A stretch of 64,000 nt of DNA from Puniceicoccaceae bacterium (GTDB taxonomy: Bacteria; Verrucomicrobiota; Verrucomicrobiia; Opitutales; Coraliomargaritaceae). The stretch lies in contig JAFMHF010000003.1 in NCBI GenBank assembly GCA_017854655.1, positions 645-64,644 of the forward strand, read 5' to 3'. Every line of letters starts with the position of its first letter. The first letter of the stretch is position 1. Positions 28,418 to 57,021 of this stretch are shown piece after piece. Both the position numbers and the translations under genes were made by a program. Under the pieces are notes generated by a model. It ran no database searches, was not told where the DNA came from, and was given only the letters and a program-made list of their open reading frames with translations.

Positions 28418-28609
28418 ATGAAAAAACTTAACGAAAAGCTCGATAGGATCAAAGCGGAAGCCCTTGAGCTAACAACAGTCATTGATCGCTTGATAGTAGA
28501 GGTTCAGTCTCTTCGTGTCGAAGCCACATCCGCAGAAGACGCGAAGCGACGTCATCGACTGGAAATGGATCTGCTGAACATGAAAGACTTTATGTGGATT
28601 CGTAGATAG
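28418..28609 (+). CDS. Small coiled-coil hypothetical protein
   Basis: 63 aa with heptad-like pattern; 14 nt after the previous gene. Confidence 0.45.
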   Translation: MKKLNEKLDRIKAEALELTTVIDRLIVEVQSLRVEATSAEDAKRRHRLEMDLLNMKDFMWIRR

Positions 28610-28760
28610 CGTAAAGCAGAGCCAATCAGTCCCGAGAAACATTTGAAGATTGGGGCCCCTTCGTGGAATGCTCCGCAGTGTGCTGCAACTCACTGTATTC
28701 TCTCGAAGCAATCTGCGTCTTCGCCGAGCATTATCTCGACGCCTTCGAGTTGTCCTTTTT

Positions 28761-29558
28761 CTATTGCGACAGCTTCAAAATACGGAGTGCTCCGCGCATT
28801 ACGAATCCGAACACGATTCCACCCACTAGGAGGTCAGGCCATGGGCTCCCCAGCCAGTATACGAGCAGACCTGCCGTGATTACGCCTCCGTTGACGATGA
28901 TGTCGTTCGAGGTAAAAATCGCGGACGCCTGCATATGGGCCTCCTCCGACCGGGCTTTTTGAATCAACCAGAGGCAGACCACATTGGCTACTAGAGCTAC
29001 AGCAGCCACGATGATCATCGTCTTGAAGTCCGGCATTGTCTCTGAATAGAAAAACCGGCGGATCACCTCCGAAAAGCCGACGAGTGCTAATAGCATTTGG
29101 AGAAGTCCACTAATTTTCGCGACCTTCTTCTTGGTCGCTACTGCAGTGCCTACAGCCATTAAACTCAATGCGTAGACGATGGCGTCGGCTAGCATGTCGA
29201 GCGAGTCTGCGATCAGGCCCATCGAGTTCGAAAACAAGCCAAAGCCCATTTCGATAACGAAGAAAGCAGCATTGATGCCGAGCACCCACCACAGAATGCG
29301 TTTTTGAGTATCTCGATTTTCGGTCGTATCTGTTTCTACCTCCTCGGAGGTCTCTAATCGTGATCCCAATCCCAATTCTGAAAGCGCCTTCGAGATTGGC
29401 TCCACATCGCCACGATGGACGACACTGACCATACGTTCTTGGATGTTTACTGATATGCATAGGACGGCCTCAAGTCCTTCCATCTTGAGCCGAATCATTT
29501 GCTCCTCCGAGGTACAGTCCAATTTTTCGACGTGGTAGCTGGATTTAAACAAAGACAT
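28761..29558 (-). CDS. Cation diffusion facilitator with N-terminal HMA-like domain and no C-terminal cytoplasmic domain
   Basis: YHVEKLDCTSEEQMIR HMA-like start; TM motifs LIADSLDMLADA and HMQASAIFTSND; WPDL in the last helices. Confidence 0.85.
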   Translation of the reverse strand: MSLFKSSYHVEKLDCTSEEQMIRLKMEGLEAVLCISVNIQERMVSVVHRGDVEPISKALSELGLGSRLETSEEVETDTTENRDTQKRILWWVLGINAAFFVIEMGFGLFSNSMGLIADSLDMLADAIVYALSLMAVGTAVATKKKVAKISGLLQMLLALVGFSEVIRRFFYSETMPDFKTMIIVAAVALVANVVCLWLIQKARSEEAHMQASAIFTSNDIIVNGGVITAGLLVYWLGSPWPDLLVGGIVFGFVMRGALRILKLSQ

Positions 29559-36045: not shown

Positions 36046-36465
36046 TCAGAGACGCAGATTTACGGTCTGCGCGACGAGCACACACGTGTCCATCAACTCC
36101 GGCGGTGCCTGAGCCTGAACAATGTGAGCAATTTCTTTTAACGTAAAATTCGGTGCGGAGACATCGGATCCCGCAGATTGAAGTGCAGTCAAAGTCGGAA
36201 TGGATTCTCCTTTGTCGATGCACACTTGCGGTAGTTCGACTGCTTTAAGTTCAAGGTCCACACAGGAGTCTTCGTCTGAGAAACGACGCTCCTCAGCTAG
36301 TCCGCTAACACACACAGGCGGACAGTCAGAGCATTTGGCGGAGCTCAACTCGGGAGAGAGGTCCGAGCTTTTGTTAAGACACAGCAACAGTCCTCCGACG
36401 CCACCAAAGAGGACGTTCCAAGCAAACAAGCTCAAGAGAGCAACTGCTGTTATTTTGCGTTTCAC
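36046..36465 (-). CDS. CzcI-like exported Cys-rich leader protein with QAPP motif
   Basis: Hydrophobic N-terminus, CSDC, QAPP plus 17 residues ending LRL; first gene of the czcCBA-like operon. Confidence 0.65.
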   Translation of the reverse strand: MKRKITAVALLSLFAWNVLFGGVGGLLLCLNKSSDLSPELSSAKCSDCPPVCVSGLAEERRFSDEDSCVDLELKAVELPQVCIDKGESIPTLTALQSAGSDVSAPNFTLKEIAHIVQAQAPPELMDTCVLVAQTVNLRL

Positions 36466-36710
36466 TGATTTAACTAGTTCGCCGATAGATCATTTAAGTC
36501 AAGGCTTTGCATTTAATTTTTCACCGATGTTTCTTTGAGTGAGCTGTCTAGGGGGTATATTTACCACACTAGTCGATCATTACAGCTTAACAGATTCATA
36601 TACCAACCGCGTGTTACTCCAGTTGGTATTTGTTCGGGTGAGTTAATCATATTGTTTTGGGAATAATAAATGTTTGTATCATTCTTACCTATTAAGTAAT
36701 CCACTGAGAA

Positions 36711-37097
36711 ATGTTTTCTAACTTCATTCATCTGCTGATGGCGCTCGCCATCTTTAATCCGTTCTGCTGTTGCACGGCGGCGGGTTTGTTTGCGGATGAT
36801 TCTGGAGTGGCAGCGATTCCGAGTTGCTGTGAGAGCACTGGCGATCAGCAGAGTTCGCAAGATCAGCATGATCCAGAGAATTGTCCGCACAAAGCTTTAG
36901 ATGACTTCGAAATTACATCTAATAAGGAGGCGGGCACTCACAACTCCACGCTTTCGCTACTTCCAGTGCTTTTTGTTGTTCGCGACTTGCTGGTCTATGA
37001 ACCAGTTGTCGAATTAATTCATCCCAAGGTGCTAGAGTCAGTGCTTGGGTCCCCACCTGTTTCGTTATCACAGGTGTATTGTGTCTATAGGATCTGA
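36711..37097 (+). CDS. CzcI-like exported Cys/His-rich leader protein with GSPP motif
   Basis: Hydrophobic N-terminus, CCC/CC/CPH, GSPP plus 12 residues ending YRI; first gene of the cus-like operon. Confidence 0.65.
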   Translation: MFSNFIHLLMALAIFNPFCCCTAAGLFADDSGVAAIPSCCESTGDQQSSQDQHDPENCPHKALDDFEITSNKEAGTHNSTLSLLPVLFVVRDLLVYEPVVELIHPKVLESVLGSPPVSLSQVYCVYRI

Positions 37098-37198
37098 TTG
37101 ATCCGTGTTGTTAACGTGCCGCTTTTGTGCGGCGCATCCATGCCACGTCCTATTCGGGATGACAGGCTTTTGAGCAATTACCGAATCAATCATGATCT
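37091..37198 (+). promoter_or_regulatory. Structured spacer; GATCTGATTGAT (37091-37102, over the stop codon) pairs with ATCAATCATGATC (37185-37197) next to the tolC ATG
   Basis: 12-bp complementarity with one bulge, seen directly; internal hairpin GTGCCGC-TTTTGT-GCGGCGC. Confidence 0.6.
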
Positions 37199-38461
37199 AT
37201 GTATACAAAACACTTTTTTAAGGGTGCCTATCGTGGCACTCAACTAAGCCTTCTATTGGGGCTATCCATTTCAATCGCATATGCGGAGAGTCTGAGTCTC
37301 GACCAAGCGCTTGCACGGGCGGAGTCGAAAAATCCTAGCTTAGAGGCTTTTCGTGAAAGTCGCCTGAGTGCAACGGAGCGCGTTGGCGCTTCGAATGCCT
37401 TGCCGAATCCGAAACTACAAGTTTCCTATTTCGGTGAGTCCGTGGAGACACGAACAGGTTCGCAAGAGGCCATCTATTCGTTTAGCCAGACGGTGCCCTG
37501 GCTGAGTAAGCTCTCTACGCGTAAAGATATCGCCTTGAGTGATGCCAACATGAGTGGCTTTGCCTATGAGCACGCTTTGGCCCAGCTTCAAAGGGAGGTA
37601 ACCATTACTTATGTCGAGCTACTTTATTTGAAGAACTCGGTCATAACGACAGAGCAGAACTTAGGGCTCATACAGGACATGCGTTCTATCGTAGAGGAGC
37701 AAGTCAGCGGCGGGGCTTCGGTTAATTCCATGCTTCGTCTGGAGCTGGAGTATGAGCGAAAGCGAGATGATCTGGATAAACTCGAACAGGAGCGAATCGA
37801 ACAACGCCATCGATTAGCTGCCTTGCTTGCGATGCCAGAAGCTCAGCTCTCTTTAGCTGGTGAACTAGAAGGGGTTGGGCCGTCAGTAGACAACGCAAGC
37901 TCGTTCCATCGGAAACTAGTTGAAAATAACCCTGAGCTGCTGGCTCTACGTCAAAGTAGCATTCGAGCTAGCCAGCAAGCGGAGTTGAGCCGATTGGCAC
38001 GTCGTCCTGATTTCACGGTGGGGCTGAACTACATTCAAGTCGATGGCAGCGGTATCGCGGCGCGAGATGCAGGCAAGGATCCATGGAATGTCTCTTTGGC
38101 CGTCAGTCTCCCGATTTGGGCGGGGAAGGATCGTGCCAACATACGTGCGACCAAGGCAAACAGGCGTTCTGTAGACAGCTCCTACCTCAATAGAGAGTTG
38201 GCACTAAAGGCCGAGCTGAGTGCAACGCTGGCGTCCTTTCAGGATAGCGCGAGGCGTATGCAACGCTACGAGGAGACGCTGATCCCGCTGGCGGACCAAG
38301 CTTTGGATAATTCGAGAGCCGCCTACGAGAGCGACCAGCTCAGTGCTCTGGAAATGATCGATAGCGAGCGCTCCTTGCTCGAACTGAAACTGAACTACTG
38401 GCGAGCCGCCGCAAACGCGCGTCAAGCGGTCGCCAAAATCAACGCCCTGATCGGCGAATAA
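37199..38461 (+). CDS. TolC/CusC-family outer-membrane factor
   Basis: LPNPKL, QTVPWLSKL, RPDFTVGLNY, VSLPIW, LEMIDSER. Confidence 0.88.
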   Translation: MYTKHFFKGAYRGTQLSLLLGLSISIAYAESLSLDQALARAESKNPSLEAFRESRLSATERVGASNALPNPKLQVSYFGESVETRTGSQEAIYSFSQTVPWLSKLSTRKDIALSDANMSGFAYEHALAQLQREVTITYVELLYLKNSVITTEQNLGLIQDMRSIVEEQVSGGASVNSMLRLELEYERKRDDLDKLEQERIEQRHRLAALLAMPEAQLSLAGELEGVGPSVDNASSFHRKLVENNPELLALRQSSIRASQQAELSRLARRPDFTVGLNYIQVDGSGIAARDAGKDPWNVSLAVSLPIWAGKDRANIRATKANRRSVDSSYLNRELALKAELSATLASFQDSARRMQRYEETLIPLADQALDNSRAAYESDQLSALEMIDSERSLLELKLNYWRAAANARQAVAKINALIGE

Positions 38462-38485: not shown

Positions 38486-40654
38486 ATGAAAACGAAACAA
38501 ATACTTATGGCTCTCGGGCTGTTAATTCTCGGTCTGCTTGCAGGTCGATTCCTCCTGCCTTCTAAAGCATCGCAAGATGCCGTTGGCCACAACCATGGGA
38601 CTGGGGACGCCGAACTTAGCGAGCCAGAAGTATGGACTTGTTCCATGCACCCTCAGATTCAACAGCCGGAATCAGGCGATTGCCCGATCTGCGGCATGGA
38701 CCTGATTCCCCTCGCAAATGATAGCGACGGTGACGAAGGTGAACGTGTTTTAAGCATGAGCGAGAGCTCGCGCGCATTGGCTGATATTCAAACGACTCTG
38801 GTTAAAGAAGAGTCTCCCGAGATAAACATCCGCCTCGTCGGAAAGCTCGGCTATGACGAGACTTTGGAAAAATCACTCACTGCACGATTTCCTGCACGTA
38901 TCGATGAACTGTTCGTCAACTTTACGGGTGCGAAAGTTCGTGCTGGCGATCCATTAGCCAAGGTCTACAGCCCCGAACTTCGCACCGCACAACGCGAATT
39001 GCTCAATGCTTACCGAGCCGACCCCGAAAGCATCTACACCGTGGCTGCTCGCAAGAAGCTCCGTCTCTGGGATCTGTTGCCCGAGCAAATTGATGCGATT
39101 CTTGATAACGGCGAAGCGCAGGATCACTTTACGATCAAAGCACCGGTGGGCGGGGTCGTTGTGGCCAAAAATGTAAGTGAAGGTGATTACCTTAAAGCAG
39201 GTGAAGTCCTCTTCCGTATCGTTGATCTGAGTAATATCTGGGCTGAACTGGATGCCTACGAGTCAGATCTGGGATGGCTGAAGGTAGGCCAATCAGCGGC
39301 GCTTTCTTTAAAAGCGTTTCCCGGTGAAGCCTTTGAGGGAGAGGTCGCTTTTATCGAACCAGAGATCAATGCGGCTACTCGAACCGTTCCCGTTCGTGTC
39401 AATGTTCCCAACTCGGAAGCTCGCCTGAAACCTGGAATGTTTGTCGAGGCGACAGTTAGTGGTTCAAGCGATAGTAGCGGTGCCTCGATTTTGGTTCCGT
39501 CTACAGCCGTCTTACGGACGGGGCAGCGGGCCGTTGTCTACGTCGAAAAACCTGATGCGGATCGCCCGACTTATGAAGGGCGGGAAATCGAGTTGGGTGT
39601 GAGGGCTGGCGATAGTTACGTTGTTACTTCAGGCCTCGAAGTGGGCGAACGGGTCGTCACTAATGGAGCCTTCAAGATTGATAGTGCACTTCAAATTAAG
39701 GCAAAGCCCAGTATGATGAATCCAGACGCTGGCTCTGAGACTGTCGGACATGACCACAGCGAGATGGCTATGGCTCCGGCTCCACCTGCGCTGTCAGTGG
39801 AAATGGCACTCTCTTTATTGGATGACTATTTGAAATTACAAGCGAGCTTGGCCGCCGACGATCTTGGCGCATCCAAGTCGGCGCTTAAAGCGATGATGCA
39901 GGTAACCGGCCATCAAGGCGATCTACCCGACTTGATACATGCGATGCTCGCAGCGGATAGTCTGGATGCGATCCGGCGTCCGCATTTTGAAACACTTTCG
40001 AATTCGCTGATCGCAGCAGTCATGGATACGCCATCGAGCTTTCCCGAAGGGCTTCTCGTGATGCACTGTCCGATGGTCTATGATGACCGTGGAGCCGATT
40101 GGATTCAAGCGACCGAGCCCCTTCAGAATCCTTACTATGGAGCGATGATGCTGAAATGTGGTGAGGTTAAATCGAAGGTGGATAGTTTGAAAGGCGCTGA
40201 GATCGAAGCGGCTACAGATACGAATTCCGAGAAATTGTTTGTGTCTTTGGTGCCCGGTTATTTGAAGCTGCAAGCCGCCCTTGCTGCGGATGATTTGGAT
40301 GCATCAAAAGTTGCTCTAAAGTCGGTGATGCAGGCAACCGGTCATGAGGGGGATATTCCCGATTTGATACATGCGATGCTTGCAGCAGACAGTCTGGATG
40401 CGATCAGACGGCCTCATTTTGAGACGCTTTCGAACGCACTGATCGAAGCCGTGGAATCCAATCCGAACTCATTTGAAACGGATCTCTATCTGATGCATTG
40501 CCCGATGGTTTACGGCGACCGTGGAGCCAGTTGGCTTCAAGCTGAGGATTCACTCCTGAACCCTTACTTCGGGGACATGATGTTACGCTGTGGCGAAGTG
40601 AAAGGTCTGCTTGTTGAGCCAGAGCTCACTAAAGAAGCTGAACACAAACATTAA
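38486..40654 (+). CDS. CusB-like RND adaptor with heavy-metal-binding domain and two C-terminal DUF3347-like domains
   Basis: WTCSMHPQI...CPICGMDL, MFP body (LKPGMF, TVPVR), tandem YLKLQ..LAADD...HCPMV...NPY.G..ML.CG units. Confidence 0.9.
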   Translation: MKTKQILMALGLLILGLLAGRFLLPSKASQDAVGHNHGTGDAELSEPEVWTCSMHPQIQQPESGDCPICGMDLIPLANDSDGDEGERVLSMSESSRALADIQTTLVKEESPEINIRLVGKLGYDETLEKSLTARFPARIDELFVNFTGAKVRAGDPLAKVYSPELRTAQRELLNAYRADPESIYTVAARKKLRLWDLLPEQIDAILDNGEAQDHFTIKAPVGGVVVAKNVSEGDYLKAGEVLFRIVDLSNIWAELDAYESDLGWLKVGQSAALSLKAFPGEAFEGEVAFIEPEINAATRTVPVRVNVPNSEARLKPGMFVEATVSGSSDSSGASILVPSTAVLRTGQRAVVYVEKPDADRPTYEGREIELGVRAGDSYVVTSGLEVGERVVTNGAFKIDSALQIKAKPSMMNPDAGSETVGHDHSEMAMAPAPPALSVEMALSLLDDYLKLQASLAADDLGASKSALKAMMQVTGHQGDLPDLIHAMLAADSLDAIRRPHFETLSNSLIAAVMDTPSSFPEGLLVMHCPMVYDDRGADWIQATEPLQNPYYGAMMLKCGEVKSKVDSLKGAEIEAATDTNSEKLFVSLVPGYLKLQAALAADDLDASKVALKSVMQATGHEGDIPDLIHAMLAADSLDAIRRPHFETLSNALIEAVESNPNSFETDLYLMHCPMVYGDRGASWLQAEDSLLNPYFGDMMLRCGEVKGLLVEPELTKEAEHKH
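39827..40604 (+). repeat. Tandem DUF3347-like domain duplication in the CusB-like adaptor (offset 432 nt = 144 codons)
   Basis: Both copies share PDLIHAMLAADSLDAIRRPHFETLSN exactly at the protein level. Confidence 0.85.
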
Positions 40655-40673: not shown

Positions 40674-41411
40674 ATGAAGAAAAAGGCGATAATCTACAGA
40701 ATGGTGACACCCGATCACCTGTGCCCTTGGGGTATCAAGGCTTGGGACTTATTGAAGCGCAATGGATACGAAGTTGATGACCGTCATCTCGAATCGATGG
40801 ATGCGAATAAGCGATATAAAGAAGAAAACGGTGTCGATGAGACGCCGCAGATCTTGATCGATGGAGAACTCATCGGCGGTTATGACCAATTGCGTGAGCA
40901 CTTGAAGCTCGGCTCCGATCCGAAGGAAGGAAAGACCTATCAACCAATCATCGCCATCTTCGCAGTCACGTTTGGGATGGCCTTGACGACGGCATGGGCA
41001 ATTCACGGTAGTCTCCATATCATACCAGTTCTCGAATTATTTATCGCATTCAGCATGTGCGTGTTGGGTGTTCTAAAACTCCAGAATCTGCAGTCCTACG
41101 CTAACGGATTCATCCAATACGATCTGCTCGCACGGCGTTATGTGCCTTACGCTTACGTCTATGCTTTTATCGAGGCGATTGGTGGAATCTTGATGATCTC
41201 GGGGCTCTTTATCTGGGTCGTCGCTCCCATCGTTCTTCTGGCGACGACGCTTGGTGCTATCTCGATTATAAAAGCAGTCTATATTGATAAGCGCGACTTG
41301 AGCTGCGCCTGTGTCGGCGGGGGGAGCGACGTGCCACTAGGTTTCATTTCCCTCACCGAGAATCTCATGATGATGGGAATGGCAATATGGATGATCTCTA
41401 AAGCCTTCTAA
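40674..41411 (+). CDS. Glutaredoxin-like plus MauE/DoxX-like membrane fusion protein
   Basis: HLCPWG, ETPQILIDGELIGGYD (Grx fold), then four TM segments and LSCACVGG...SLTEN. Confidence 0.8.
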   Translation: MKKKAIIYRMVTPDHLCPWGIKAWDLLKRNGYEVDDRHLESMDANKRYKEENGVDETPQILIDGELIGGYDQLREHLKLGSDPKEGKTYQPIIAIFAVTFGMALTTAWAIHGSLHIIPVLELFIAFSMCVLGVLKLQNLQSYANGFIQYDLLARRYVPYAYVYAFIEAIGGILMISGLFIWVVAPIVLLATTLGAISIIKAVYIDKRDLSCACVGGGSDVPLGFISLTENLMMMGMAIWMISKAF

Positions 41412-41414
41412 ACT

Positions 41415-44400
41415 ATGAGCACCAATCCAAAAAATCCGATCAATCAGCTCATCCGTTTCTGTCTCGAGAACAAGCTGGTCGTCATACTCTTCACCGTCGT
41501 TCTCATCTTCTGGGGAATTGCCGTCGCTCCCTTTGATTGGGAGTCTGATTTCTTGCCACGCGATCCGGTTCCCGTCGATGCGATTCCCGACATCGGCGAG
41601 AACCAGCAAATTGTTTTCACCGAGTGGATGGGGCGCTCTCCGCAGGATATCGAAGATCAAATCACATATCCGCTGACGACTGCATTACTGGGTCTGCCAG
41701 AAGTGAAGACGATCCGCAGTTACTCGATGTTCGGCTTCTCCTCGATCTATATCATCTTCAAGGAAGATGCTGAGTTTTATTGGACGCGTAGTCGCATCCT
41801 CGAAAAGCTCAATAGCCTGCCATCGGGCACCTTGCCGCAAGGAGCGTCACCCCAGTTGGGGCCGGATGCCACCGCCTTAGGGCAAGTCTTTTGGTATACA
41901 CTGGAAGGCATGGACACGGACGGTAATCCAACGGGTGGCTGGGACTTGGACGAGCTACGTAGCACGCAGGATTGGTATGTGCGCTATGCGCTGCAGGGTG
42001 TCGACGGGGTCGCCGAAGTTGCCTCTATCGGGGGCTATGTGAAAGAGTATCAGATCGACGTCGATCCGGATGCACTTCGGACCTATGATGTCGCGTTACA
42101 TGAAGTGTTTGCCGCGGTTAAGGGGAGCAATCTCGATGTCGGAGCGCGCACGATTGAAATCAATGCGGTTGAATACGTGATTCGGGGGCTGGGGTTTATC
42201 GATAGTCTGGATGACCTTCGTAAGACAGTCATTACCCAACGCGACAATGTGCCGGTGACGCTCGATCAAATCGCCTCTATCGAATACGGCCCCGCGCTGC
42301 GGCGTGGCGCATTGGACAAGGCGGGAGCTGAAGCAGTCGGTGGTGTTGTCGTCACGCGTTATGGAGAAAACCCGCTCGAAGTGATCAAGCGGGTGAAAGC
42401 AAAAATCGGTGAAATTTCGGCGGGCATGCCTAAAAAGACGCTTGAAGACGGCACAGTCAGCCAAGTCGAGGTGGTTCCTTTTTATGATAGAACCGGCCTC
42501 ATCTACGAGACCCTCGGCACGCTGGAGAATGCCGTGCGGCAACAGATACTCGTCACGATCATCGTTGTCGTGCTCATGGTGATGCATTTGCGCAGCGCTT
42601 CATTGATCGCAGGTGTGTTGCCACTCGCGGTGCTCTTTTCTTTTATCGGCATGAAGCTGTTTAAAGTCGATGCGAACGTCGTCGCGCTATCTGGAATCGC
42701 GATCGCGATTGGCACCATTGTGGATATGGGTGTTGTTCTGGTTGAGAACATCCTCAAGCATATTGACAAAGCACCACCGGATGAGAATCGTCTGGAAGTC
42801 GTCTACCGAGCTTGTAGCGAAGTGGGTGGGGCAGTGGTCACCGCTGTGCTCACAACGGTGATCAGCTTTCTGCCTGTCTTCACGATGCAGGCTGCAGAGG
42901 GTAAATTGTTTCAGCCGCTCGCTTATACCAAAACGTTCGCGCTGATCGGTTCTATCCTTGTGGCGATTACGATTATACCTCCACTGGCACACTGGGTATT
43001 GGCGAGACGGATACGAAAAAAAGCGAAGGCCGTCCCTAGATGGCTCGGCTTCCTCAAAAAGTATTCCCGTTATGTGATTTGTCTTACAGTCGCACTCATC
43101 ACTGCGTGGTTCTTGGCCGCAGACTGGAAGCCATTGGGTGTAGAAGCAACTTTGATGAACTTTCTCTTTGTCGTTCTCACCATTGGTGGACTTTTAGGAT
43201 TCTTCTATGTGTTCGTCCATTTCTATGGGCGTATCCTCGCTTTCCTCTTAAAAGCGAAAACAGTTTTTCTCGCTGGTTGTGTGTGTATTATTCTTTTCGG
43301 GTTCACAATCTGGTTGGGCTGGGGGAAGGTTTTTGGGTGGATGCCTGAATTTGTTAAAAAATCTGATCCCTATGTAGCAGTGGCCCATGCAGTGCCCGGG
43401 TTGGGCAAAGAATTTATGCCGGACCTCGATGAAGGTTCCTATCTTTTGATGCCAACGACTATGCCGCATGCCTCCATCGGCGAGGTCATGGATGTGCTGC
43501 GCAAACAGGACATGGCAATCAACGCGATTCCAGAAGTGGAGATGGCGGTGGGTAAATTGGGGCGCGTTGAAAGTCCGCTCGATCCTGCGCCGATTTCCAT
43601 GATCGAAACGATTATCAATTATAAGTCGGAGTATCTAAGCGATGAGGATGGTCGGATCCTGACTTTTGCTTATGATCACGCTGCGGGCGTGTTTGAGCGC
43701 GACGCATCCGGCGATCTAGTAGCGGATGAAGACGGTCGTCCTTTCCGACAGTGGCGCGACGAGATTCAGAGTCCTGACGATATCTGGGATGAAATCGTAA
43801 AGGCAGCCACGATCCCCGGGACGACCTCCGCACCTAAGCTTCAGCCTATTGCCGCACGCATCGTCATGCTGCAAAGTGGTATGCGGGCACCGATGGGCCT
43901 GAAAGTCTACGGCCCGGATTTGGAAACACTCGAACAGGTCGCGTTGGACATCGAGGACTCTCTCAAGCAGGTGCCTTCCATCAAAGCCGAGGCCGTGTTG
44001 GCCGACCGAATTGTCGGCAAACCCTATTTGGAAATCGACATCGATCGTGATGCCATTGCCCGCTTCGGTATCACAATTAAAATGGTGCAGGACGTGATCG
44101 AGGTTGCCGTTGGCGGAAAGCCGATTACAATGACGGTCGAAGGTCGTGAACGCTATCCTGTCCGCGTGCGGTATATGCGCGAGCGGCGTGACAGCATCGA
44201 ATCCATTGAACAGGTCTTAGTCGCTGCACCCGATGGCACTCAAGTTCCACTGCGTGAGCTGGCTTCGATTAACTACGTCAGAGGACCTCAAGTGATTAAG
44301 AGTGAGGACACCTTTCTTGTCGGCTACGTCATCTTTGATAAGCGCGACGGTTTTGCTGAGGTTGAAGTCGTTGAGCAGGCTAGCGAGTTTCTTCAGCAAA

Positions 44401-45074
44401 AAATCGATAGTGGCGAACTCAACATACCAGCCGGAGTGAGCTATAAATTCACGGGTAGCTACGAGAACCAAGTGCGTGCAGAGAAGCGGCTACGTGTCGT
44501 TCTGCCTATTGCGCTCTTCGCCATTTGGTTGATCCTCTATTTCCAGTTCAAGCGTTTTGCCACCACCATGCTCGTCTTCTCTGGGATCGCATTCGCTTGG
44601 TCGGGTGGATTCATCATGCTCTGGCTGTATGCGCAGCCTTGGTTCTTTGACCTGAACTTGTTTGGGCATAATCTGCGTGAACTTTTCCAGATGGACGTGA
44701 TCAATCTAAGTGTCGCCGTTTGGGTCGGTTTTCTCGCTTTGTTCGGCATCGCAACCGACGACGGCGTCATCATGTCGACCTATCTTGAACAACGCTTCAG
44801 AGAATCACCTCCGATGAACCGGGACGAGATTCACCAGCGGGTGATCGAAGCCGCGTCGCGTCGCGTGCGTCCTGCTTTGATGACGAGTGCCACTACGATT
44901 CTGGCGTTACTTCCAGTGCTCACCTCTACCGGGCGTGGATCTGACATTATGCTCCCGATGGCAATTCCATCCTTCGGTGGCATGCTACTCGCCATCCTCA
45001 CCATCTTCGTGGTGCCCGTGCTTTACTGCGGACTAGCGGAAATCGCACACCGGTTCACTTCACCCAAAAAATAG
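41415..45074 (+). CDS. cusA: CusA-type Cu(I)/Ag(I) RND permease
   Basis: PVDAIPDIGENQQIV, LGPDATALG, IGTIVDMGVVLVEN; methionines at the positions of the CusA triad (LLMPTT, PISMIET, RIVMLQSG). Confidence 0.9.
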   Translation: MSTNPKNPINQLIRFCLENKLVVILFTVVLIFWGIAVAPFDWESDFLPRDPVPVDAIPDIGENQQIVFTEWMGRSPQDIEDQITYPLTTALLGLPEVKTIRSYSMFGFSSIYIIFKEDAEFYWTRSRILEKLNSLPSGTLPQGASPQLGPDATALGQVFWYTLEGMDTDGNPTGGWDLDELRSTQDWYVRYALQGVDGVAEVASIGGYVKEYQIDVDPDALRTYDVALHEVFAAVKGSNLDVGARTIEINAVEYVIRGLGFIDSLDDLRKTVITQRDNVPVTLDQIASIEYGPALRRGALDKAGAEAVGGVVVTRYGENPLEVIKRVKAKIGEISAGMPKKTLEDGTVSQVEVVPFYDRTGLIYETLGTLENAVRQQILVTIIVVVLMVMHLRSASLIAGVLPLAVLFSFIGMKLFKVDANVVALSGIAIAIGTIVDMGVVLVENILKHIDKAPPDENRLEVVYRACSEVGGAVVTAVLTTVISFLPVFTMQAAEGKLFQPLAYTKTFALIGSILVAITIIPPLAHWVLARRIRKKAKAVPRWLGFLKKYSRYVICLTVALITAWFLAADWKPLGVEATLMNFLFVVLTIGGLLGFFYVFVHFYGRILAFLLKAKTVFLAGCVCIILFGFTIWLGWGKVFGWMPEFVKKSDPYVAVAHAVPGLGKEFMPDLDEGSYLLMPTTMPHASIGEVMDVLRKQDMAINAIPEVEMAVGKLGRVESPLDPAPISMIETIINYKSEYLSDEDGRILTFAYDHAAGVFERDASGDLVADEDGRPFRQWRDEIQSPDDIWDEIVKAATIPGTTSAPKLQPIAARIVMLQSGMRAPMGLKVYGPDLETLEQVALDIEDSLKQVPSIKAEAVLADRIVGKPYLEIDIDRDAIARFGITIKMVQDVIEVAVGGKPITMTVEGRERYPVRVRYMRERRDSIESIEQVLVAAPDGTQVPLRELASINYVRGPQVIKSEDTFLVGYVIFDKRDGFAEVEVVEQASEFLQQKIDSGELNIPAGVSYKFTGSYENQVRAEKRLRVVLPIALFAIWLILYFQFKRFATTMLVFSGIAFAWSGGFIMLWLYAQPWFFDLNLFGHNLRELFQMDVINLSVAVWVGFLALFGIATDDGVIMSTYLEQRFRESPPMNRDEIHQRVIEAASRRVRPALMTSATTILALLPVLTSTGRGSDIMLPMAIPSFGGMLLAILTIFVVPVLYCGLAEIAHRFTSPKK

Positions 45075-45098: not shown

Positions 45099-45671
45099 AT
45101 GAAAAACATACTACACATGGCTCTGGGCCTACTACTAAGCATTTCTGTGCTTCAAGCGCACAGTGACGCCTTCAAACCTACGTTCGTCGATACATTAGTC
45201 GATCCATACCTCTCCATGCAAAAAGGCTTGGCGGCTGACGATCTGCAAGCTGCTCAAGTAGGCGCCGCCGCTTTTCTTAAAGCGATGAAACATGCGCCGC
45301 ACGAGGGGGGAGCTCACGAAGAAGCCATGGATCTGAGCAATCCAGCAAAGACAATCTCAGGGGCGGAAGACATCAAAGTGGCACGCACTGCCTTTTTGGA
45401 TCTGTCCCAGCAGATGACCTCGCTGATTCAGCATGTCGGCACTACCGCCGACACACCGCTTTACACCGCATTCTGCCCAATGGCATTCGATAACAAAGGC
45501 GGTCAGTGGATCCAGTCCGAGAAAACCGTATCCAACCCATACTACGGATCGATGATGCTACGTTGCGGCAGCGTTAAAAAGAAAATCGCCGGAAGTGCAG
45601 AACATTCTGACGATTCTAAGCATGGAAAGATGCCGATAAAGAAAGACGACCATTCCGGCCATTCACACTAA
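45099..45671 (+). CDS. Exported DUF3347-like metal-binding protein
   Basis: Signal peptide; YLSMQKGLAADD, FCPMAFDNKGGQW, NPYYGSMMLRCG; His-rich tail. Confidence 0.8.
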   Translation: MKNILHMALGLLLSISVLQAHSDAFKPTFVDTLVDPYLSMQKGLAADDLQAAQVGAAAFLKAMKHAPHEGGAHEEAMDLSNPAKTISGAEDIKVARTAFLDLSQQMTSLIQHVGTTADTPLYTAFCPMAFDNKGGQWIQSEKTVSNPYYGSMMLRCGSVKKKIAGSAEHSDDSKHGKMPIKKDDHSGHSH

Positions 45672-45841: not shown

Positions 45842-46765
45842 CTAAGAACTGCAATTTGCTCCGCCTTTGATATTGTGGCAGCGATTTTCCGCTGATTCGA
45901 ATTCTAGGGTGCTGTGGTGAATCGAAAAGTGTTCTCTCAAGTAGGTTTTGACCGTCTCCTTGATTGATTCCAGTTCCTCCATGCTGGAGGCTTCCCCGAT
46001 CACGACATGCGCCTCAAGTGCACGGTGATGTTCGTCGAGCTCCCACACGTGGATATGGTGCACATTTTCGATTCCATCGAGGTTTTGCAAGGCCTCCTTG
46101 ATCTCATCCACAGAGAGATTGGTGGGGGTGCCTTCCATCAGGATACGCGAGGTTTTCTTTAACATGCCAAATGACATATAGAGTATATATCCCGCGATGA
46201 TGAGTGTGATAAGGGGATCCACCCAAGTCCAATCGAGCCATAGAATCGCAGCGCCGCCAAGCAAGACGGCGACTGAAGCACCGGCGTCGGTCAGGTTATG
46301 TAGGAACGCTGCCTTCACATTTAGGCTTCCCTTGGACATCGACCACAGGAGCCAAGCGGTAATTACATCCACCACGAGTGCGACGCCAGCCGCTGTCATG
46401 ATCCAGCCCCCAAGTAGTGGCTCGGGGTCGAAGAATCGGCGCACCGCCTCGTAGATGAGGTATAGCCCTACGAGTATCAGTGCGGTCAACTGGATCATCG
46501 CGCCGATCAGCTCGGCTCGTCGATACCCGAAAGTATATTGCTCGTCAGCACCCTTGCGGGAAATCTTACGGGCAATATAGGCGATGAGCAGTGCCGCAGC
46601 ATCATTGGTATTATGCAGCGCATCGGCCATCAAGGCCACGCTCCCCGAGATCGCCCCAGCGACAAATTCGAAGACCGAGAGTCCTAAATTAACAATGACC
46701 GTCCACAATAGAACGCCGTCGCTGACATTTTCAGTGCCGTGAGAGTGGTTGTGATCGTGTCCCAT
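45842..46765 (-). CDS. czcD: CzcD/ZitB-type cation diffusion facilitator
   Basis: His-rich N-terminus, ADALHNTND, TFGYRRAE, AFLHNLTD, DPLIT, HIHVWELD, HSTLEFE. Confidence 0.9.
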   Translation of the reverse strand: MGHDHNHSHGTENVSDGVLLWTVIVNLGLSVFEFVAGAISGSVALMADALHNTNDAAALLIAYIARKISRKGADEQYTFGYRRAELIGAMIQLTALILVGLYLIYEAVRRFFDPEPLLGGWIMTAAGVALVVDVITAWLLWSMSKGSLNVKAAFLHNLTDAGASVAVLLGGAAILWLDWTWVDPLITLIIAGYILYMSFGMLKKTSRILMEGTPTNLSVDEIKEALQNLDGIENVHHIHVWELDEHHRALEAHVVIGEASSMEELESIKETVKTYLREHFSIHHSTLEFESAENRCHNIKGGANCSS

Positions 46766-53052: not shown

Positions 53053-53150
53053 GAAAAAACCTGTTTAGTTGAAATCGTCATAAGACACGTTCGAACGTGC
53101 CAAAGTCACACGAAGGAAATCCTACGTGCATATTTCACTAATCAGGTTTT
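53053..53150 (-). promoter_or_regulatory. Structured 96-nt spacer; arm over the stop codon (53132-53150) pairs with the tolC initiation region (53056-53075)
   Basis: mRNA AAAACCUGAUUAGUGAAAU is complementary to AUUUCAACUAAACAGGUUUU (one mismatch, one bulge); internal palindrome CACGTTCGAACGTG. Confidence 0.65.
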
Positions 53151-53607
53151 AAATTCGGAGCACTGTCGTGCGCACACACTGCTCTAATGTGCCACAGAAA
53201 ATGGGTGGCGCTCGTGTCGCTAAACGTATCTGAGGAGCCGCGTTTGCTTTAATGATCGGAACAAATAGCTGATACGAGTGGTTTGCGGCTACTGGTTTCT
53301 TAATCGAAATAAAATCAGCGACTCGCTGTATCGGCTCATTCGATGAGCTGATCAAAATGTCGATGCAGTGTTGGTCACTAACTGCAGAAAGGCCATCATC
53401 TGCTTCGCCGGAATGGGAATCGTGATTGTGTGATTCCGTCTCATGTCCATGGCATGTGTCACCATGATCAGAGTGTTGCCCCGTGAGCACATGACCAAAA
53501 TTATGATCATGCAGGCACAGCACCGCCCCACCAGCAGTAGCTAGTAGGCCGTTCATTGCCATCATCAGGGTAAGGCAATATGCTGTGTATTTTTTTAACA
53601 TGAACAA
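53149..53607 (-). CDS. CzcI-like exported His/Cys-rich leader protein with RAPP motif
   Basis: Hydrophobic N-terminus, LCLHDH and His-rich middle, TRAPP plus 17 residues ending LRI; first gene of the third RND operon. Confidence 0.7.
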   Translation of the reverse strand: MFMLKKYTAYCLTLMMAMNGLLATAGGAVLCLHDHNFGHVLTGQHSDHGDTCHGHETESHNHDSHSGEADDGLSAVSDQHCIDILISSSNEPIQRVADFISIKKPVAANHSYQLFVPIIKANAAPQIRLATRAPPIFCGTLEQCVRTTVLRI

Positions 53608-54852: not shown

Positions 54853-55206
54853 ATGCGCAATGCAGTAGACAGTTTAGGAAGCGAAGAGCGCCTCGGTGAG
54901 ATCGGCGAGATCCTCTCCCGTGGCGTCGAGCTACTCCTGCAATCGCGCGTGCGAGTTATCGAAAAAGAAACCACAAGAAATGAAGAACTAAATGGCGAGG
55001 CTCACGAAGTAGTCCACGACAGCCCCATTATTCAAATGACGACAAGGTTCGGCTCAATCTCGACAGCGGACGTGATCGAAAAAATGGGGATGACTCGTTC
55101 AACGGCACGTCGTCGCCTCGCCGAACTGGTCGATTCTGGAGATCTGGTTGCTGAGGGCAAAGGTCGTGGAGCTCGCTACCGCGTCGCCTCCAAATCTGGA
55201 AACTAA
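54853..55206 (+). CDS. Small winged-HTH protein, candidate recombination directionality factor or regulator
   Basis: N-terminal EERLGEIGEILSRG; C-terminal wHTH ISTADV...STARRRLAELVDSG...GKGRGARY; 18 nt upstream of the recombinase. Confidence 0.6.
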   Translation: MRNAVDSLGSEERLGEIGEILSRGVELLLQSRVRVIEKETTRNEELNGEAHEVVHDSPIIQMTTRFGSISTADVIEKMGMTRSTARRRLAELVDSGDLVAEGKGRGARYRVASKSGN

Positions 55207-55224
55207 AAATTAAAATAGAACACT

Positions 55225-57021
<1,797 letters not shown>

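Follow-up and report, generated by a model that had tools for sequence, protein, structure and literature searches.

A long RNA helix that pairs the stop codon of one gene beside the start codon of the next is the central feature of "Locus 2," part of a 64,000-nucleotide (nt) stretch of DNA (the window) from a Puniceicoccaceae bacterium of the Verrucomicrobiota (GenBank assembly GCA_017854655.1, contig JAFMHF010000003.1, positions 645 to 64,644 of the forward strand). The first of the two genes is a small open reading frame (ORF) for a Cys-rich protein, P0001; the second encodes an outer-membrane efflux protein (OEP) and precedes the other genes of an operon for a CusA-like pump of the resistance-nodulation-division (RND) superfamily. 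The stem between stop codon and start region, which had been proposed in a preliminary description of this DNA, is real, exceeds what chance would produce and is conserved with covariation, compensatory changes being found across 14 loci. According to modeled folds, translation of the OEP gene probably requires ribosomes to reach the end of the small ORF. On balance we favor an interpretation of Locus 2 as a cis-acting module of the CutF/CruR type, placed before a Cu(I)/Ag(I) RND operon, in which unmasking of the start codon is coupled to termination.

The region in question (37050-37201) comprises the last 16 codons of the small ORF, a spacer of 101 nt and the OEP ATG at 37199. The minimum free energy (MFE) of 37085-37210 is -44.4 kcal/mol, as compared with -29.0 +/- 3.5 for shuffled sequences (z -4.41, with none of 200 shuffles equal), and a longer piece around the helix gives a z of -3.57. 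The predicted structure is an interrupted helix of 25 base pairs (bp), formed by 37086-37112 with 37173-37203 and enclosing two hairpins in the topology of a three-way junction; pair probabilities in the core of this closing helix are 0.87-0.99. The 3' arm takes in the 26 nt upstream of the OEP AUG as well as bases 2-5 of the OEP coding sequence, and the stop UGA (37095-37097) pairs with UCA at 37190-37192, 7-9 nt before the start AUG. The strings from which the preliminary description had built its model all lie where it placed them: the stop arm GGATCTGATTGATC contains the TGA, ATCAATCATGATC stops at 37197 and is separated by a single base from the ATG at 37199, and CACCTGT (37054-37060, the codons of Pro115-Pro116-Val), ACAGGTG (37070-37076), ATTCGG (37152-37157) and CCGAAT (37181-37186) are likewise present.

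No Shine-Dalgarno (SD) motif precedes the OEP start at Locus 2. A "split SD" drawing on the SD-like AGGA of the 5' arm was considered and ruled out, as close homologues have CGGAUC. A local hairpin suggested by a terminator scan, GGAUC-UGAUU-GAUCC (37090-37104), was also set aside, its ensemble probability being 0 and its forced fold 6.9 kcal/mol worse. A scan of the whole window with Rfam 15 at the gathering score found nothing at Locus 2, and its sole match was a tRNA at 56925-57011. The 3' arm also contains, at 37192, an AUG that is conserved and lies out of frame 7 nt upstream of the OEP start (pattern UCAUGAUCNAUG); here it opens a mini-ORF of nine codons, and in two distant homologues (L043 and L044), the AUG of the equivalent UCAUG is the OEP start itself. 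At the level of DNA, 37188-37201 holds an 8-bp palindrome, ATCATGAT, and the element has three GATC sites, at 37091, 37100 and 37194.

The conservation of the helix was followed with two covariance models, R1 and R2, built for the Locus 2 type. In alignment A9, which holds 14 loci from Puniceicoccaceae and is fitted to the model structure, paired cells amount to 88.9%, a level that none of 500 shuffles attains (76.1% in shuffles), and compensatory change is seen in 18 pairs where shuffles give 10.2; alignment A8 behaves similarly, and slid controls of A9 are 30-41% paired. Compensatory changes affect five of the six pairs of the inner helix and six of the seven pairs of hairpin 1, and the outer helix, GGAUCUGAUUG/CAAUCA-u-GAUC, is invariant in the Locus 2 subfamily. 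Conservation of sequence is confined to the two arms, with junctions and loops free and the interior kept as structure only. RNAalifold applied to a MAFFT alignment (A3) missed the long helix, the variable interior having been misaligned, and this was remedied by R1 and R2. An additional test that is independent of alignment compared duplexes between stop-proximal and start-proximal segments: cognate pairs give -14.9 kcal/mol and non-cognate pairs -10.3, and none of 20,000 permutations is as low.

The same layout, a small ORF followed by a spacer with a closing helix and two hairpins, occurs in four sequence types (1-4) across relatives, with Locus 2 representing type 2. Of 61 relatives searched with R2, 11 carry the element, each genome having one or two copies, and every match examined among the matches listed directly follows a type-2 ORF; one further match, at 28569-28640 on the minus strand (E 1.5), is weak and was dismissed as chance. 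When the intergenic regions (IGRs) of types 1, 3 and 4 were searched with R2, nothing was detected, and the types are therefore not one sequence family. Comparison of the type-2 protein family (alignment A5) with types 1/3/4 (A6) by hhalign is likewise not significant (probability 5%), so that a common origin of the leader types rests on architecture rather than on sequence.

How translation of the small ORF might affect the helix was modeled by placing a ribosome on the transcript as a mask reaching from -15 to +14 relative to the P-site codon's first base, a footprint width assumed in line with what is generally known of bacterial ribosomes. A ribosome at the Pro-Pro codons (Pro115 in the P site, 37053) reaches to about 37068 and leaves intact the helix, which begins at 37086. 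With UGA in the A site, the ribosome covers about 37077-37107, and the 5' arm from 37086 to 37105 falls inside its footprint. The probability that the start region is unpaired is 0.18 in the free RNA, 0.18 with the ribosome at Pro-Pro and 0.50 with the ribosome at the stop codon; for the AUG the value is 0.05 in the first two states and 0.59 in the third. Because a ribosome at Pro-Pro leaves the helix closed and one at the stop codon opens it, switching appears to be driven by the ribosome at the stop rather than by competing helices. The preliminary description had suggested constrained folds of just this kind as a check, and they speak against a switch set by the Pro-Pro ribosome, the start remaining buried with the ribosome at Pro-Pro. 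In these predicted folds Locus 2 belongs to the mechanistic class of start-sequestering structures opened by upstream translation, and footprint-constrained folds of two sister loci in the window (Loci 1 and 3) show the same behavior.

Residues 1-26 of the small protein are hydrophobic (Kyte-Doolittle 1.6-1.9) and could be a signal peptide or an anchor, ending in NPFCCC; distant relatives begin with MKK, a hydrophobic region and NPLCCC, a textbook signal peptide. Cysteines occur at positions 19-21, 39-40, 58 and 124, with a C58-P-H60 motif, and a second hydrophobic helix (80-100) is followed by G-S-P-P at 113-116 and the terminal QVYCVYRI-stop. Across the 22 diverse sequences of A5, P17, C19-21, C39-40, C58, H60 and C124 are invariant. 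The preliminary description had spoken of a Cys-rich leader: the richness in Cys (CCC, CC) stands, while a short leader does not describe an ORF of 128 residues with a hydrophobic N terminus. The tail C-x-[YR]-[RL]-[ILV]-stop is kept in all family members in spite of synonymous changes (AGG/CGG, UAU/UAC, UGU/UGC), which indicates that the peptide is selected right up to the stop codon. Homologues are found in Puniceicoccaceae and in metagenome-assembled genomes (MAGs) of other Opitutales, and those in public databases are all unnamed and without a Pfam domain; scans of P0001 itself against Pfam and NCBIfam returned no match. AlphaFold2 run on A5 produced a low-confidence model (predicted local distance difference test, pLDDT, 53.5) with no confident fold.

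Downstream, the "cus-type" label given to the operon in the preliminary description has proved justified by the score of its RND protein against CusA and by the conserved Met triad. The closest solved relative of this protein is Escherichia coli CusA (626 bits, as compared with 410 bits for ZneA), and each of the three residues that align with M573/M623/M672, the Cu(I)/Ag(I) site of CusA, is Met, if the PDB chain is numbered, as we infer, with a tag offset of 7 residues. No two-component, MerR-family or ArsR-family regulator was found among those ORFs of the surrounding metal-resistance island that were scanned, which were a part of the total, and the one helix-turn-helix protein seen lies outside the island at 54853. 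The lack of a classical metal regulator among the scanned ORFs fits control by leader ORFs.

Put together as a CutF/CruR-type module, these features suggest the following sequence of events. The small Cys-rich protein would be translated first and, by analogy with CutF, exported as it is made. The helix would be closed by default, its 3' arm burying the OEP start codon together with the preceding 26 nt, with the two sequence-free hairpins acting as a clamp that holds the arms together. A ribosome arriving at the stop codon would unwind the whole 5' arm and so release the start region; because the UGA pairs with the UCA just upstream of the AUG, release would occur right beside the terminating ribosome. 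Translation of the pump would then be gated by the number of ribosomes that finish the small ORF and by their dwell time at its end. Binding of metal in the periplasm may feed back on elongation or termination through the nascent chain, again by analogy with CutF, and for such feedback the C-x-Y-R-I-stop tail and the hydrophobic helix 28-48 residues from the C terminus seem better candidates than the non-conserved GSPP.

Several systems already described are close to Locus 2. CutF is a small exported protein with a Cys motif that melts a stem-loop shielding cutO's ribosome-binding site (PMC9973294; bioRxiv 10.1101/2025.02.05.636593), and the commonest neighbors of CutF-like genes are OEP genes of RND systems (PMC9973294). 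Locus 2 resembles the cutFOG arrangement of Rhodobacter capsulatus in having a small ORF for a presumably exported protein with a Cys motif directly upstream of a copper-detoxification gene and, in its predicted folds, an intergenic RNA that shields the downstream start and is opened by a ribosome on the small ORF. It falls within the rule-based filter for CutF-like genes (fewer than 150 residues, an N-terminal signal peptide, Pro-Pro in the last 15 residues and a same-strand gene within less than 1000 nt; PMC9973294), with its signal peptide judged by hydrophobicity, although homology, too, was used in seeding the published lists. The differences are also substantial. In CutF, a PPP stall lies within the last ~10 residues, whereas at Locus 2 Pro-Pro is 12 codons before the stop, beyond reach of the helix and unconserved; the simple stem-loop over an SD in the former is replaced in the latter by a 25-bp long-range helix with two hairpins that includes the stop codon and covers no SD; and in place of CxxxC there is NPxCCC/CC/CxH, with an RND pump operon as the target. 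Neither CXXC nor CxxxC is found in P0001, whose Cys pattern is CCC, CC, C-x-H and C124.

CruR (Bp2923) of Bordetella pertussis, a DUF2946 protein, offers a second parallel: its ORF also precedes metal-transport genes and encodes Cys ligands and a Pro-Pro motif at the C-terminal end (PMC9426467). It responds to metal and controls its downstream genes post-transcriptionally (PMC9426467). In canonical DUF2946 proteins RAPP is followed by a few residues (PMC9426467); CruR, where RAPP lies three residues from the end, has a long, unstructured, C-rich IGR and works through Rho-dependent termination (PMC9426467). Locus 2, in contrast, has GSPP within the last 15 residues without Arg, a conserved tail of 12 residues after it, and a highly structured IGR that would be poor for Rho loading. 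Arrest peptides of the RAPP/RGPP kind (ApdA, ApdP and SecM-like; PMC10951233, PMC12992588) are similar in combining a small secreted protein, a late Pro-Pro and a downstream start masked by RNA, but the Arg reported to be irreplaceable in them is absent at Locus 2, where G-S-P-P falls outside the pattern R-[AG]-P-P. CzcI of Cupriavidus metallidurans is a small periplasmic protein whose gene, like that of P0001, lies directly before the outer-membrane factor gene of a heavy-metal RND operon, and it has no strict Pro arrest motif (PMC9973294). The likeness to CzcI is one of gene position and absence of the Pro motif. We know of no conserved stop-to-start helix described for czcI. A precedent for the RNA architecture is the "Min Jou" interaction between the coat and replicase cistrons of phage MS2, where upstream translation melts a long-distance helix hiding the start of the next cistron; at Locus 2, which differs in organism and context, it is the stop codon that pairs, with sequence next to the start codon, and two hairpins add a clamp. 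From these comparisons, the best reading is that Locus 2 represents a verrucomicrobial variant of the CutF/CruR metal-sensing leader genes.

Several considerations weigh against this interpretation. The alignments used to count pairs lean toward the model to which they were fitted, and the invariance of the outer helix could instead reflect coding constraint (R-I-stop) or the DNA palindrome. Masking of the 5' arm opens the start region only halfway (0.50), in part from pairing in the model with the upstream coding sequence. From its sequence we infer that P0001 is exported and would bind metal at NPxCCC/CC/CxH in the periplasm. As for homology to DUF2946 and CutF, P0001 has no match to DUF2946 (PF11162) even at E<=10. 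In a six-frame scan of the whole genome with the same model, the best match is the ORF of Locus 3, which is sub-threshold (E 0.34; 12.5 bits where the cut-off is 23.7), and among 17 members of types 1, 3 and 4 a single one gives a match, with E 0.2.

The alternative that fares best is translational coupling without sensing, in which the small protein would be a periplasmic or membrane metal-binding accessory of the pump, comparable to CzcI or CusF, and the helix would simply tie OEP output to that of the small protein. Much of the evidence suits it: the geometry favors unmasking that depends on termination, the Pro-Pro is unconserved and lacks Arg (PMC12992588), the invariance of seven Cys and one His is what a metal-binding protein would show, and CzcI stands upstream of czcCBA without a Pro motif (PMC9973294). 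It is nonetheless rather unlikely in our estimation, as no fold is predicted for P0001 (pLDDT 53.5), as the residues up to the stop codon are the best-conserved part of the protein apart from its Cys, which is typical of nascent-chain effectors and not of the C terminus of a chaperone, and as the operon would be left with no obvious sensor, no transcriptional metal regulator having been found among the scanned island ORFs. A more specific proposal, which we regard as distinctly unlikely, places an arrest at the stop codon rather than at Pro-Pro. Cu(I) bound to CCC/CC/CxH would slow termination through the tail C-x-[YR]-[RL]-[ILV]-stop, with the hydrophobic helix, which is 28-48 residues from the peptidyl-transferase center when the ribosome is at the stop codon, sensing pulling force; the ribosome parked on the 5' arm would hold the RNA helix open, and the start AUG, because the UGA pairs with the UCA next to it, would be handed directly to the same ribosome or 30S subunit in an SD-less, structure-mediated termination-reinitiation across 100 nt. 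If true, this would make P0001 a metal-sensing termination-arrest peptide without a RAPP motif.

The preliminary description had advanced another model, in which a pause at Pro-Pro, together with a hairpin over those codons, chooses between an ATTCGG/CCGAAT pairing and the stop/start stem, giving a bistable switch responsive to Cu. All of the complementary strings exist, xAPP is common in the closest homologues, and CutF does use a PPP stall (bioRxiv 10.1101/2025.02.05.636593), yet little credence can be given to this model. The Pro-Pro hairpin, with an ensemble probability of about 0.4, is no better than expected (z -0.85; 43 of 200 dinucleotide shuffles do equally well) and is not conserved: the mean z in 18 homologues is -0.46, the synonymous third base of Val varies (GUG, GUU, GUA) without compensation, and a weak recurring GCACC/GGUGU pairing is present only because Ala-Pro and Gln-Val-Tyr are conserved. 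The second state fails in similar fashion. The ATTCGG/CCGAAT pairing is given a probability of 0.000 by the free ensemble and of 0.001 once the 5' arm is masked, and forcing it costs 8.6 kcal/mol while the outer stem stays closed; a hexamer complement of this kind arises in 16% of shuffles, and the pairing is lineage-specific, being absent in more diverged homologues. The peptide motif offers no firmer support. Close homologues have G/V/Q/P/H-A-P-P, others GSPE, and distant members no Pro-Pro, and a paralogue in the same genome (contig C4), with the same leader, RNA, long CusA-like RND and HMBD adaptor, has QASP. In published mutagenesis the Arg of RAPP/RGPP proved irreplaceable for robust arrest, AAPP and AGPP being arrest-defective (PMC12992588), and GSPP lacks it. 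As a Pro-Pro ribosome falls short of the helix in the modeled folds, a stall there could act only as a brake and not as an opener.

The long helix might alternatively be an element for processing or stability of the RNase III type, splitting the leader from the pump mRNA or removing an inhibitory 5' arm. A helix of ~25 bp with only small interruptions is of a size that suits RNase III, and its interior is free in sequence; a processing site would leave unexplained, however, why the stop codon lies in or next to the 5' arm and the start codon in or next to the 3' arm in four subtypes unrelated in sequence, and we consider this explanation improbable. A metal-binding riboswitch or an RNA thermometer built on the three-way junction, suggested by a structured 5' region before a metal pump, is the least plausible, given that Rfam has no match, that conservation lies in the arms and not in the nucleotides of the junction and loops, and that for CruR no sensing of Cu by the mRNA itself was seen in vitro (PMC9426467).

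The coordinates of the features discussed here are collected in the table that follows.

Features of Locus 2 and its surroundings, in coordinates of the window
Feature	Coordinates	Strand	Details
Small ORF, P0001	36711..37097	+	128 aa; TGA stop 37095-37097
OEP gene, OEP/TolC-CusC type	37199..38461	+	420 aa; Pfam OEP, E 3.7e-40
Membrane-fusion adaptor	38486..40654	+	722 aa; HMBD + DUF3347 domains
Glutaredoxin-MauE/DoxX membrane fusion protein	40674..41411	+	between adaptor and RND genes
CusA-like heavy-metal efflux (HME) RND pump	41415..45074	+	1219 aa; Met triad kept; extra segment after residue ~530
Free DUF3347 protein	45099..45671	+	190 aa
Pro115-Pro116 codons CCA CCT	37053..37058	+	context G-S-P-P-V; no Arg at -2
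7-bp hairpin over Pro-Pro codons	37054..37076	+	present; neither significant nor conserved
5' arm	37086..37112	+	outer part UAUAGGAUCUGAUUGAU, including last three sense codons + UGA; inner part CG + GUUGUU; from MFE fold
Hairpin 1	37116..37135	+	GUGCCGC-UUUUGU-GCGGCGC; structure kept, sequence free
Hairpin 2	37142..37167	+	GCC.GUCCUA-UUCG-GGAUGA..GGC; ATTCGG in loop + 3' strand
3' arm	37173..37203	+	AGCAAU..CG.AUCAAUCA-U-GAUCU.UGUA
Sister small ORF	36046-36465	-	spacer 104 nt; closing helix + two hairpins, z -5.5
Sister small ORF	53149-53607	-	spacer 96 nt; closing helix + two hairpins, z -4.9
Cation diffusion facilitator (CDF; Cation_efflux) gene	28761-29558
Cation diffusion facilitator (CDF; Cation_efflux) gene	45842-46765

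Locus 2 is one of three such arrangements in the window, the two other RND operons having the same three-part architecture with unrelated sequences. Their small ORFs carry QAPP and RAPP, followed by a conserved tail of 17 residues ending in VLR[ILV]. Locus 1 has an RND protein nearer to ZneA, and for the RND protein of Locus 3 the comparison gives no clear assignment; of the leaders, one, at Locus 2 with its CusA-like pump, has Cys only, one is rich in His and one is mixed. Loci 1 and 2 diverge from a common AT-rich region of 245 bp (window 36466-36710), in which a scan for the sigma-70 consensus found no promoter-like site. A fourth-type leader (L005; G000:C115:15503-15805) occurs on another contig of the same genome, with RGPP plus 18 residues ending in TVLRV; its clamped IGR pairs UCCUAAUACA/UGUAUUAGGA over an AGGA SD, and this fourth type is widespread in the genus. 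Among pumps associated with type-2 leaders, the CusA-like RND proteins are of 1219 and 1249 residues (the second at L092:4227-7976), ~170-200 residues longer than CusA. The extra segment contains hydrophobic stretches and lies between the N-terminal half and PC1, where the alignment with CusA breaks from residues ~531 to ~660. The paralogous operon on C4 has no glutaredoxin-MauE/DoxX gene.

The three HME-RND operons, each with a Cys/His leader ORF and a clamped IGR, form together with the two CDF genes a metal-resistance island that extends over 28761-53607 of the window. It is flanked by a serine recombinase (55225-57021) and a tRNA (56925-57011, minus strand), with conjugation-type genes upstream, and because of these neighbors the island is probably located on an integrative mobile element. 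Copies of the Locus 2 leader and RNA, with protein identities of 90%, 42% and 45%, are also found on contigs in MAGs labeled Gammaproteobacteria, Polaribacter and Yoonia (L080, L081 and L084), which may be either mis-binned Puniceicoccaceae contigs or the result of horizontal spread of the mobile island.

CutF and CruR have established that bacteria can sense extracytoplasmic copper via an exported peptide that is still nascent and that regulates the following gene at the level of translation or transcription. To our knowledge, none of the cases among CutF-like ORFs that neighbor RND genes has been dissected. Locus 2, with its relatives in marine Puniceicoccaceae, contributes to this question an RNA structure supported by covariation and a geometric prediction, namely, that unmasking of the start needs a ribosome at the stop codon and not at Pro-Pro, and the natural variants of its motif (GSPP, QASP, GSPE and none) separate the roles of Pro-Pro and of the conserved C-terminal tail. 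If confirmed, the module would carry the CutF principle over to RND pumps, to the Verrucomicrobiota and to a family that the Pfam model of DUF2946 does not detect.

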